From positions 26,373 through 90,372 of the forward strand of contig JAYQSH010000002.1 of the NCBI GenBank assembly GCA_038146805.1: a stretch of 64,000 bases of DNA, written 5' to 3'. The notes beneath the pieces were generated by a model that did not search any database, was not told the origin of the DNA, and worked only from the letters and a program-made list of their open reading frames with translations. The translations under genes were made by a program, and so were the position numbers. Source of the DNA: a bacterium. GTDB lineage: Bacteria > Cyanobacteriota > Vampirovibrionia > LMEP-6097. Numbering within the stretch: position 1 is the stretch's first letter; each line of letters begins with the position of its first letter. Positions 57,968-60,828 of the stretch are shown in pieces.

Positions 57968-60828
57968 ATGAATATTGAAATTAATGGTATCAGTTACACT
58001 AAGCCATGATATTAAAACAAAAGTTGATGAATATCTGAGCTATTTAGAAGGTGTTAAATCTGGTATTTATTCGGCAACAAGTTCTGAAGTTAATTTGCTA
58101 AATCTTGGTACTAATAAATCTGTTGACGAGGTTATTAATAACCTAAAAACTTTTTCTGTAGATGATGATATCGGAAATTTTGATTTTAATACTAATGGTC
58201 AATCTGGTGATGATATAGATTTCTTAAAGCATATAATCTCTAAGGGGCAAGCTCGTGGTGAGTTGCAAATTAAAGATAATGGAAATGGAAGTCAAGAGTT
58301 TATTACCTCTGGTGGATATAAAGTTGTAGTAAGTCGAGGTTATGGTAACGTAGAAATTTTTAAACCTGATGGTACCTTAATGACAAAAATACATGGTGAT
58401 CCTCATGTTAATGAATATGATGCAAATGGTAATTATACTGGTCAGTGGCATTATGCTGATGATTCAACATTTATACTTGCTGATGGTACAGAAATTGTAA
58501 TGAATTCAAAAAAAATTTCAGATACTATTATGGTAAACAGAGGGGTCTATGTAAAGGATGGCGATAAGGTTGCCCATGTTGGATTAGAGTTTGGTGCAGG
58601 GCGCAACAATGATGCTATTGATGGACAAGAAGAGGGCGAATATAGAACAATTAGATTTTTAGATGTTGATGCAAATGAGTGGGATGCTGCTGTTGCTGAA
58701 AAAAATTCTTCTGGCAAACGTAATGGAGTCTTTGCTGAAATTAATGGACAATGGGCACGTCAAGGAGATGATGGCAAATTTTATGATATGAAATTTGAAT
58801 CATGGTCTAGTTATACAAGAAGACAAGGTAATGAACTTTTCACAAGCGATCAAGCTGTTCTTGCAAATAGAGAGCAACTTATTGCGGCGCTTGATGGACA
58901 AGATGTTTTAGATTTTGCTCAACTTGAATCTTTAAACTTAGGTCCTATACAATCCTATGTAGAAAATTTGTTTTTAGCAAATAGAGAATCTTTAGATGCA
59001 AATACTATTAGTGCCTTAGAAATTTTTGTAGGTCTTGATGCAAATTCTGATGAACTTATGACTATTATAAATTCAGGACAAATTTCTGATAATGCATTAA
59101 ACGTCTTAAGATTCTTTAAAAATAGTGGAGCAAACGTTCAAGAGCTTTTCGAGGTATTTGATCATGGTGATATAAGTGATCGCAAACAATCTACTTTAGA
59201 TTTGTTTAAAAGTGCTGGTGCATCGGTTGCTGACATGATTGATGTTCTTGATTATGATGATGCGTCTGATAATCAAGTTCATGTTTTGGATATTTTAAAA
59301 TCCAAGGGAGCAAGTATTGATGACCTCTTTAGTGTTTTAGATTTAGAAGATGTTTCTAGTAATAATGTTGAATTTATTGATACTTTATTACTCGCCGATG
59401 ATAGTACAAATCTTGCTGACATTCTATCTGTTTTGCATACTAATGTTAGTGAAAATGTTAAAAATTTAGCAGATGTATTTCTAACTCTTGATGGCGTGAA
59501 TAAAGATCATTTACTTGCTTTATTAAACATTGAAAATATCGCTGATCAAGCGCCAGATGTTGCAAATGTTTTTATTGACAATGGTGCTTCGATTGATGAG
59601 TTAATGGATTTAGTTCAAAATGTAAACTTTAATGATAGTACTAAAACATATGCAGAATCTTTATTTAATAATGGTCTTAATGTCAATCAAGTTTTAAATA
59701 TTTTAAAAACTGTTGATACTTCTGCAATAACTGCAGACCATTTGGTAAATTTAATAAATTTTGGTTTTAATGATGAGCAAATTTCTTTAGCTATTAATAG
59801 TGGAGTAAATTCAGATCAAGAAAGTTTTGTTGAAGATGTCCTAAGCTTTGTAAATTCTGTTGGTGATATTAATTTATTAAGTCCTGAAATGAAAGAGGCA
59901 TTAACTGGTAGGTATTTTTCTTTAAATACTAATAGTGATGATGTCCTTTATAATCAAGATTTAGCTGATTTATTTGCTGATTTGAGTGAATTTGATATTT
60001 CTAATGATAATGTTTTTGGTCAGTATTTAACACAAGTATATGATAAAAGTATTTTTTCTCAAGCTGAAATAGATGTTAATGATATAAAGGCAAAAATGTT
60101 TTTCTTATCACAAAATAACTCTATTTCAAGCTTTATTGATGATCATGATGATATCGATTCTGCATACAAGAATTTACTGGTAGCTTCTTTCTTTGAAACT
60201 GATGCAGATCAAGTAAATGCTGCTAGAGAATTATTGTCTGATGATCAAGAAGCTCATATTGATTTGATTAAGCAAATGTATCAAGTTAGTTCTCAGACTA
60301 ATCATACTTACTATTCTGTTTTCAAAGATCTTTTAGCTAAGGTTACAAACCCAAAAATATCTTTAGCTATTTACGAAGGAGATTTTTCTTTATTAGTAGA
60401 TAATACTTCATCTAAAAGCTCAGGAAGTGGTCGTAAGGTAAAAACTAATACAGAGCAAGAAGTTGAAGAAACAAATGAACTTTTTAAATCTATAAAGAAT
60501 TTCATATCAAGTCCAGAAGCATCTTTTGCAAGTTTACAAGATAAAGTCAATTTAATTAGTGGTTTAGGTGATGAATCTTCTGGAGATCAACAAGTAATTG
60601 ATAATAATCATCAGATTCTTTCTGGAATCAATCAATTGGAGACTAGATGATTTAAGATCACAACGTGAGGCGATTTTAAATAGATTAGCCGCTATGAATT
60701 CTAGTGGTGGATCATCTGGAGGAAGACGAGTTAAAGGTTCAGGAAATAATCTTAGAAATAGTTTAGAGTCTAAATTAGTAAGTCTTGAAAGTCAAATTGC
60801 TTCATTAGAACAAATGCTTGGTTTATAA
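57968..60828 (+). CDS. Large acidic protein with a DUF1521/MIIA-like GDPH domain, helical repeats and C-terminal coiled coil (frameshifts near both ends)
   Basis: [33 protein letters not shown] precedes ATG 57968. The 60598-60828 ORF continues the protein after a shift near 60640. Confidence 0.65.

Follow-up and report, generated by a model that had tools for sequence, protein, structure and literature searches.

A melainabacterial DUF1521/MIIA-family protein with predicted metal-triggered self-cleavage and putative flagellar-type export

Introduction

Self-cleavage at an Asp-Pro bond is known from the DUF1521/MIIA protein family, for which its chemistry and the metal that triggers it have been documented (PMC6506597). 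All members studied experimentally are tied to type III secretion (PMC6506597; PMC9569860). So far, work on MIIA domains has been confined to proteobacterial proteins associated with injectisomes, namely the secreted effectors NopE1/2 and VIC_001052, whose gene lies in a T3SS (type III secretion system) cluster. The domain also serves as a self-removing purification tag, and new, robustly folding variants would therefore be of practical value.

Here, a gene is described that lies in a 64,000-nucleotide stretch of bacterial DNA (the window) and that an initial annotation had assigned to a self-processing, exported protein of a melainabacterium. The proposed host agrees with genome-level kinship. 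The reading favored here, to which we give a probability of about 60%, is that the gene encodes an acidic, Cys-free DUF1521/MIIA protein of ~950 residues with no signal peptide, which would undergo metal-triggered self-cleavage after export by a flagellar-type apparatus; its expression would be driven by a tandem promoter box, and the frame breaks in the present assembly would be errors. The data themselves show to which family the protein belongs, how it is built and conserved, in which gene context it lies and that it has the promoter box; cleavage is inferred from NopE1 and VIC_001052, and the export route and the use of the box from context.

Reading frames of the gene

The interval 57968-60828 had been treated as a single gene. 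In this assembly it consists of three frames under translation table 11 and not of one continuous ORF (Table 1), so that the earlier reading crossed two frame breaks without mention. Relative to an intact metagenome copy (P0002, L002:1638-4499), which is continuous over 953 aa and 98% identical to the window gene, the assembly has two extra bases, the first near 58000 and the second near 60640. Length differences of one or two bases are also present in the neighboring genes (the 3' end of lepA, flhB2 and a pyruvyl-transferase gene), several of them in runs of A or T, and the neighbor infB carries an in-frame stop. Because the 98% identical copy is intact, the neighbors are similarly broken and pN/pS between the window gene and the intact copy is 0.19, the frame breaks are most likely sequencing or assembly errors. 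The same pN/pS value, together with the length differences and the stop in the neighbors, indicates that the gene is functional and not decaying.

Table 1. Features of the DUF1521 gene and its surroundings (positions in the window).
Feature	Position	Strand	Basis or remark
Tandem promoter-proximal box CTTAATgagtcCTTAAT	57905..57921	+	exact match; second hexamer begins 52 nt before ATG
Shine-Dalgarno AAGGAG and true start ATG	57954-57959 and 57968-57970	+	sequence; intact relatives start identically in this frame
First 11 codons of the DUF1521 gene (13-codon frame, stop 58007-58009)	57968..58009	+	frame change near 58000
Main open frame, 891 aa (P0001)	57975..60650	+	residues 12-890 of the 953-aa intact relative, 98% identity
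DUF1521/MIIA module, ~235 aa as conserved in the subfamily	58260..58964	+	Pfam match covers 58314-58619
GDPH motif; predicted scissile Asp-Pro bond between 58400/58401	58395..58406	+	site by homology to NopE1 and VIC_001052 (PMC6506597)
About nine degenerate 30-aa helix-hairpin repeats, xxxxxLxxFxxxGaSxxDLxxVLxxxDxSD	59001..59900	+	lag-30 autocorrelation
C-terminal Gly/Ser/Arg-rich patch and amphipathic helix, last ~60 residues	60640..60828	+	third frame; aligns with the C-termini of all relatives
Second flhB copy (flhB2), 3' part, frame-broken in the assembly	63517..63999	-	PF01312 in two frames, C2:89901-90907

Could both extra bases be genuine and the gene a recently inactivated pseudogene? 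In that case it would give at most a truncated product lacking the first ~11 residues and the C-terminal hairpin. In favor of this are the two independent breaks within one 2.9-kb gene and the accessory nature of the family, which is missing in 11 of the 30 genomes of the window's melainabacterial family, including the sole genome of the same genus (G003, 96% complete). Against it are the comparable differences in conserved neighbors, the stop in infB and the pN/pS value, and the fact that promoter box, Shine-Dalgarno sequence and ATG are all intact; recent inactivation is unlikely. Programmed frameshifting was also considered and rejected: no slippery motif is common to both sites, and the relatives are in frame.

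The DUF1521/MIIA module

Profile searches agree with the proposed DUF1521 domain. PF07481 matches the window ORF with E = 3e-7 and 31 bits against a curated cut-off of 23.6, reaches ~36 bits both for the module of the intact relative and in a whole-genome scan, and is matched by 52 of the 52 aligned relatives. The GDPH motif lies exactly where it had been annotated. In the window, GDPH(V) stands at the conserved position, with an acidic loop and then a DSTF-L-DGT block behind it; throughout the alignment (A3, 52 sequences), G, D, P, H and F are invariant, and conservation is 90% or higher for V, L, D, G and W. BLASTP against a two-domain NopE-type homologue of Bradyrhizobium jicamae gives E = 2e-9 and 2e-7, with 43% and 38% identity over 61 aa around GDPH, where the protein tested experimentally for cleavage is NopE1 of USDA110 and not this homologue. 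A profile search with the module retrieves 1041 representative proteins among 1.84 billion, and an NCBIfam search of the protein gives no match.

The AlphaFold2 model of the module (pLDDT 88.5, pTM 0.88) is a β-rich fold in which two strands are joined by a turn that contains GDPH. Foldseek searches of the PDB with the module and with the full-length model returned nothing below E = 1e-3, just single-layer β-sheet analogues (OspA, TCP10/G-box, NHL) with TM-scores of about 0.2-0.38, and a sequence-profile search of solved structures gave only chance coiled-coil matches. These searches also bear on whether GDPH might belong to a self-cleaving domain of the VWD type, as in mucins, the competing family that the initial annotation had named. 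The tetrapeptide is identical, yet PF00094 is found in none of the 52 relatives at E <= 1, whereas PF07481 is found in every one; moreover, the best 50 Foldseek matches in the PDB include neither a VWD nor an RGM chain, and the best TM-scores there are only about 0.2. With DUF1521 matched above its cut-off and no VWD match by sequence or fold, a VWD-type domain is extremely improbable. By its sequence, the protein is assigned to the DUF1521/MIIA family and not to VWD.

By analogy with NopE1 and VIC_001052, only 20-25% identical to it over the module, the window protein would cleave itself at GDPH. As proposed from the same two proteins, it may be kept uncleaved in the cytoplasm, where calcium is low. 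Once the protein is exported, the acidic loops adjoining GDPH would bind Ca2+ (or Mn2+), and the metal-bound module would fold and then cut the Asp144-Pro145 bond, giving predicted fragments of ~16 kDa and ~89 kDa that may remain associated. Two paralogs (L016:2336-7282 and L035:3098-7225) keep the module without GDPH, and the module therefore has some role that is independent of cleavage.

DUF1521 proteins of this kind are concentrated in the window's own melainabacterial family, where they occur in 19 of the 30 genomes, with up to seven copies per genome. Over 201 genomes of the class, its presence is not discriminated by the presence or copy number of FlhA. The results as a whole show a distinct, expanded DUF1521 subfamily in non-photosynthetic relatives of cyanobacteria, here in a genome whose detected export gates are all of the flagellar type.

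Architecture of the protein

The protein had been described as large, acidic and very rich in Asp and Asn, as its composition bears out (D 10.2%, N 9.5%, net charge about -86, pI 4.2, no Cys). No signal peptide or membrane segment is found, the Kyte-Doolittle(19) maximum being 0.95 and the KD(10) maximum in the first 40 aa 0.25, in agreement with the reported lack of a Sec signal. On the numbering of the 953-aa relative, the N-terminus (1-95), which is conserved and consists of a hairpin and a helix bearing a degenerate EF-hand-like loop, is followed by the MIIA module (98-332), about nine 30-residue repeats, a helical body and a predicted C-terminal helical hairpin (874-911 and 922-952), the last in keeping with the C-terminal coiled coil already annotated.

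Autocorrelation of BLOSUM scores confirms the degenerate ~30-aa repeats (lag 30, z = 11.6 versus shuffles), which extend beyond the 59100-59400 first assigned to them. They are predicted, with low confidence, as helix pairs, and no tandem repeat is detectable at the DNA level. Since they are mostly missing from relatives of 53% identity, they represent a recent expansion. The C-terminal basic patch with its IASLxxxL helix was considered as a signal common to other proteins of the genome and discarded, as an HMM of the family C-terminus matched only the gene itself.

The tandem CTTAAC box

Upstream of the gene lies a tandem box (Table 1). Of 22 DUF1521-family genes in relatives, 12 have the arrangement CTTAAC-N5-CTTAAC upstream at a distance of 39-53 nt, where 0.05 would be expected. 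Within the window's own genome, 17 of 19 box matches fall outside coding sequence, a share that is 20% for permuted-hexamer controls (p = 1.4e-10), and the 30 genomes of the family contain 477 matches against 90 for a reversed control. From the 11-bp phasing of the box, the regulator is guessed to be a response regulator of the OmpR/PhoB type. The same box marks about ten further unannotated, signal-less proteins of this genome; in a Pfam scan of ten box-associated proteins, none scored above the curated cut-off. From this context, transcription of the DUF1521 gene would be driven by a lineage-specific tandem CTTAAC box held in common with these proteins. A sigma-28 promoter was also considered for the gene; the resemblance is partial and is not kept in the 98% identical relative, and the tandem box is preferred. 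The flagellin genes have a sigma-28-type promoter (TAAA-N17-CCGATAT), and no tandem box was seen upstream of core flagellar genes. Regulation therefore gives no tie to the flagellar hierarchy.

Gene neighborhood and export

In this genome the gene is flanked by infB and lepA, and no secretion operon is present at this place. Export through the flagellar gate had been suggested from a flhB gene ~3 kb away. That gene is present (intact, at 354 aa, in L002), but the argument drawn from it is weak because its synteny with the DUF1521 gene is limited to close relatives. Moreover, this flhB is a second copy that stands alone, and genomes throughout the class usually have a second FlhA. Better support for a flagellar link, independent of flhB, comes from three relatives of the same family (L012, L015 and L027), in which paralogs are placed between fliJ and a hook/rod-type (FlgE/F/G-type) gene. 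Immediately downstream of the paralogs come an unannotated gene of ~270 aa and a FlgE/F/G-D1 gene, and in L012 a Pfam-confirmed fliJ (E = 1e-10) is located farther upstream of them. The genome survey for T3SS and flagellar genes and for paralogs, as advised in the initial annotation, finds flagellar-type gates only, with flagellins and two sets of FlhA, FlhB, FliPQR, FliF, FliE and FliH, and DUF1521 paralogs in genomes of the family. Elsewhere, type III core genes are found within 8 kb at 8 of 63 DUF1521 loci. From this context, the protein may be exported via one of the organism's two flagellar-type type III gates. The conserved N-terminus is predicted to be structured and differs from typical injectisome signals, which counts against the reading favored here.

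It is possible that this family member makes no use of a flagellar-type gate and leaves the cell by another exit (type I secretion, vesicles or lysis), or that it acts inside the cell or on its surface. Its acidic, Cys-free, repeat-rich and putatively calcium-responsive character and its conserved C-terminus are traits also typical of type I substrates; in addition, no co-regulation with flagellar genes is seen, and the place between infB and lepA offers no secretion operon. Against this, the conserved neighbors of the paralogs include neither an ABC transporter nor a membrane-fusion gene, three relatives have paralogs within a cluster of flagellar genes, and the studied members of the family are all type III-associated (PMC6506597; PMC9569860). 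This reading is unlikely, although it is the alternative that we take most seriously.

A different role would be that of a structural or assembly factor of the flagellum, a ruler-, cap- or sheath-like accessory exported during hook assembly, instead of a free secreted protein. Firmicute-type operons have fliK and flgD between fliJ and the hook/rod-type gene, the very place taken by the paralogs, and the conserved N- and C-terminal helices flank a variable middle as in axial proteins. However, a Pfam scan of the protein finds no Flagellin_N/C, Flg_bb_rod, FlgE/F/G D1 or FliD family at E <= 1, copy number varies patchily from 0 to 7 within one uniformly flagellated bacterial family, and the window's own genome keeps a fliJ-x-flgE-like cluster with no DUF1521 gene in it. 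A flagellar part is improbable.

A more far-reaching proposal takes the tandem CTTAAC box as the mark of a conserved regulon in this melainabacterial family. Its members, signal-less and Pfam-less, would include the DUF1521 proteins and two 356-aa proteins that form a universally conserved pair, and they would be the cargo of the second flagellar-type export apparatus (FlhA2/FlhB2/FliP2Q2R2/FliF2/FliE2/FliH2). This duplicated apparatus is present in most families of the class. The proposal is speculative and unlikely to hold. If true, the second apparatus would be a flagellum-derived secretion machine and the DUF1521 proteins calcium-armed exported effectors directed against prey, hosts or neighbors.

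The subfamily is open to experiment in several ways: it offers a confident predicted fold for a domain without a solved structure, natural GDPH-less paralogs as built-in controls, and a conserved promoter box that ties DUF1521 to otherwise unannotated proteins. Together these provide a route to ask what these bacteria export and what purpose the duplicated flagellar core of the class serves.

Comparison with known systems

Non-flagellar proteins are known to leave the cell via the flagellar type III apparatus, for example Cia, FlaC and FspA of Campylobacter and YplA of Yersinia. Like the window protein they are signal-less and belong to organisms or conditions without an injectisome, and some of their genes lie beside flagellar genes; they differ in having no homology to the melainabacterial proteins, whose export is putative. 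The VWD domains of MUC2, MUC5AC and FCGBP and the RGM proteins have the same tetrapeptide and the same Asp-Pro bond, and the chemistry, an attack of the Asp side chain on the peptide bond of the same residue, is probably similar. In contrast to the window module, these domains are Cys-rich and eukaryotic, are triggered by acid pH instead of metal, and have no detectable similarity to it in sequence or fold.

VIC_001052 of Vibrio coralliilyticus (Hoyer et al., 2019; PMC6506597) has, like the window protein, a single DUF1521 domain, a strongly acidic character, metal-binding loops near GDPH, and the conserved Trp and hydrophobic positions. It differs in its length of 370 aa, the location of its gene in a type III secretion cluster and its disorder without Ca2+ (PMC6506597), whereas the window module has a confident AlphaFold2 β-fold, a model that represents the folded state and is silent on metal dependence.

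NopE1 and NopE2 of Bradyrhizobium diazoefficiens USDA110 are type III-secreted and show calcium-dependent self-cleavage at GD/PH in their DUF1521 domains. They belong to the same Pfam family as the window protein and likewise have no Sec signal. The (I/W/H)GDPHV core is followed in both cases by an acidic Gly/Asp loop and DxTFxLxDGT, and both domains of the Bradyrhizobium NopE-type homologue align with the window module. However, NopE proteins have ~500 aa with two domains and little else, whereas the window protein has one domain in ~950 aa, its module is conserved over ~235 aa as against 169 Pfam positions, and it adds an N-terminal helix with a degenerate EF-hand-like loop, the 30-aa repeats and the C-terminal hairpin. 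Finally, NopE belongs to an injectisome regulon behind a tts box, whereas the organism of the window showed only flagellar-type gates and its DUF1521 gene stands behind a different promoter box.

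Reading Frames of the DUF1521 Gene

The initial annotation placed the DUF1521/MIIA (metal-induced autocleavage) gene at 57968-60828; the strand is plus. Its closest relative in the protein collection, P0002 (953 aa, 98% identical), is continuous from start to end. In this assembly the interval is spread over three frames (translation table 11). The ATG at 57968, eight bases 3' of AAGGAG, opens a short frame of 13 residues followed by a stop, the main ORF (P0001) occupies the second frame, and the last ~60 residues, consisting of a Gly/Ser/Arg patch and an amphipathic helix, lie in the third frame, ending at 60828. 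Relative to contig L002, which encodes P0002, the window carries one extra base near 58000 and another near 60640, and the gene also shows one in-frame 3-base difference.

Are these breaks assembly errors or decay? The window and L002 have 7.7 kb in common at 98.4% identity, and further length differences of 1-2 bases, several in A or T runs, affect the lepA 3' end as well as the pyruvyl-transferase gene (62963-63520), shortening the ORF of the latter from 270 to 185 aa. At the end of the window, flhB (C2:89901-90907) is likewise divided between frames. The differences in these three genes point to indel errors that recur systematically in this assembly. An in-frame TAA in infB (55638-55640), parting the N-terminal part (55284-55637) from the remainder (55641-57818), is probably another such error, or else a break tolerated given an internal start at 55833. 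Within the DUF1521 gene, 23 synonymous and 17 non-synonymous differences from L002 give a pN/pS of 0.19, and no damage is seen in the promoter box, ribosome-binding site or start codon. Together with the disturbed neighbours, this ratio and these intact signals argue for assembly errors and against decay, with a probability of roughly 0.8. Folds and searches were run on the naturally intact relative.

Coordinates of the features discussed (unprefixed, window; C, contigs of the window's own genome; L, relatives' loci)
Feature	Coordinates	Strand	Remark
infB	55833-57818	+	left neighbour of the gene
Tandem box, CTTAATgagtcCTTAAT	57905-57921		
Main ORF P0001, 891 aa	57975-60650	+	second frame
lepA	60792-62642	-	right neighbour of the gene
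1-2-base length differences from the 98.4%-identical contig	60852, 62838-62839, 62930		A or T runs
flhB, 3' part	63517-63999	-	end of window
Flagellar-type core genes, own genome (1)	C4:65694-67832, C5:627317-629419, C4:107273-109190, window 63517-63999 (= C2:89901-90907)		
Flagellar-type core genes, own genome (2)	C5:709418-710439, C5:877144-879312, C5:583575-585281, C8:29597-33675		
Tandem pair of 356-aa proteins	C7:67501-69738 (L079)		no Pfam match; orthologous loci L080-L098
GDPH-less paralogs	L016:2336-7282, L035:3098-7225, L016:1412-2263		beside GDPH-bearing copies

Family Membership and Distribution

The DUF1521 assignment is borne out by the Pfam profile (PF07481), which reaches 31 bits over residues 114-215 (cut-off 23.6) and is matched by all 52 sequences in the alignment of the conserved ~235-aa module. 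A von Willebrand D (VWD) domain, envisaged earlier as a competing best match, is found in none of the 52. Eleven of eleven homologues from a large protein collection likewise have DUF1521 as their precomputed Pfam family, and the window's module can be aligned to each of the two domains of a NopE-type protein from Bradyrhizobium, with 43% and 38% of residues identical round GDPH (E = 2e-9 and 2e-7). Across the alignment, GDPH and one Phe show no variation, and conservation is 90% or more for the V after GDPH and for an L-x-D-G block. Searching 1.84 billion representative proteins with a profile retrieves 1041 members, so DUF1521 is a small family. Scanning one genome per species gives 63 loci, in Melainabacteria/Caenarcaniphilales, Myxococcota (with two or three DUF1521 domains per protein), Bdellovibrionales, Endozoicomonadaceae/Kistimonas, Sphingomonas, Photobacterium and Bradyrhizobium. 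The present gene is the sole DUF1521 gene of its 2.06-Mb genome. It represents a known domain, soundly identified, in a lineage and setting that are unusual for it.

PF07481 occurs in 26 of 201 genomes sampled from the class. Of these, 19 come from the window's own bacterial family, in which the domain is present in 19/30 genomes at up to 7 copies each; the genus is represented by one other genome, which lacks it. Four parts recur in the members: a helix at the N-terminus, an EF-hand-like loop that is canonical in some of them and degenerate in the window's protein, the module, and a long variable helical part ending in a coiled coil. Some paralogs adjoining GDPH-bearing copies have lost GDPH and kept the module, so the module serves for more than cleavage; such paralogs provide non-cleaving controls of natural origin. 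Five records (L011, L012, L019, L020, L035) are labelled "uncultured Gammaproteobacteria", yet their DUF1521 proteins are of melainabacterial type and the promoter box of the family is present. These labels look mistaken; the genome collection places G022, the genome with L012, in the window's own family.

Predicted Structure

No structure has been published for the DUF1521/MIIA family (PMC6506597). AlphaFold2, supplied with the 52-sequence alignment, predicts residues 98-332 of the intact relative (pLDDT 88.5, pTM 0.88) as a beta meander of ~16 strands with few short helices, placing GDPH in the turn joining strands 5 and 6. A Foldseek search of this module against solved structures returns nothing below E = 1e-3, the best matches being single-layer beta sheets (TM ~0.2). 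The full-length model (pLDDT 67.7) runs from an N-terminal hairpin and helix through the module, repeat helix pairs and a helical body to a C-terminal hairpin. The 30-residue period of the repeats is significant (z = 11.6); the helix pairs modelled over them are of low confidence. The intact protein has a mass of 105 kDa and a pI of 4.2, and a cut at the predicted site, Asp144|Pro145, would yield fragments of 15.7 and 89.3 kDa. As annotated initially, there is no Sec signal peptide; the search found no membrane segment either.

A Tandem Promoter Box

Nearly all DUF1521-family genes in this bacterial family are preceded by a tandem direct repeat, CTTAAC-N5-CTTAAC(C/T), whose second hexamer begins 39-53 nt ahead of the start codon. 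The box is present in 12 of 22 upstream regions of relatives (0.05 expected). The window's genome has the pattern 19 times, 17 of them in non-coding DNA, against 20% non-coding for 179 permuted-hexamer controls (p = 1.4e-10). Thirty genomes of the bacterial family give 477 matches, compared with 90 for the reversed pattern, and some genera reach 25-40 per genome. In the window's genome the box precedes genes for ~10 hydrophilic, signal-less proteins, none of which exceeds the curated cut-off of any Pfam family. One of these, of 356 aa, has orthologues in 30/30 genomes of the bacterial family and the box at 12 of the 20 orthologous loci fetched. The 356-aa proteins at C7:67501-69738 form a tandem pair, which likewise occurs in all 30 of these genomes. 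From the 11-bp phasing, a winged-helix response regulator might be guessed to act at the box. The strongest box in the genome (C3:58551-58588, minus strand) has four in-phase CTTAAY hexamers, 10-11 bp apart, ahead of a signal-less 1210-aa protein without significant Pfam match.

Flagellar and Type III Context

The genome is flagellated, with eleven Flagellin_N matches, several with clear sigma-28-type promoters upstream. Among the tandem flagellin genes at C5:891768-897575, four have a clear promoter of this type (TTAAAG-N15-CCGATAT) and one a weaker variant, and both differ from the DUF1521 gene's tandem box; no box is found at core flagellar genes. There are two core gene sets (two each of FlhA, FlhB, FliP/Q/R, FliE and FliH, and two FliF-size proteins); the genes of the second set are scattered, and the FliQ among them carries a tail of 170 aa. 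The initial annotation took the nearby flhB as a hint of export. That flhB is present, but the order infB-gene-lepA-flhB is conserved in close relatives only and, since most families of the class have FlhA in duplicate as a rule, its position is not in itself special.

A stronger flagellar link is the gene context in L012, L015 and L027 of the same bacterial family, where DUF1521 genes are immediately followed by an unannotated ~270-aa gene, an FlgE/F/G-D1 gene (PF22692, E = 3e-12), ybeY and cysS. The inserted DUF1521 genes of L012 have a fliJ upstream of them, confirmed by Pfam (PF02050, E = 1e-10). This cluster, headed by a putative FliJ-like gene (C5:835102-839331), is also found in the window's own genome, without the insert. 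Beyond the family, architecture, distribution, context and box, which are observed, the protein may be co-regulated with other box genes, leave through a flagellar-type gate and, once exported, undergo metal-triggered cleavage at Asp|Pro. Outside Melainabacteria, type III core genes lie within 8 kb in 8 of the 63 DUF1521 loci, in agreement with the family's documented link to type III secretion (PMC6506597; PMC9569860).
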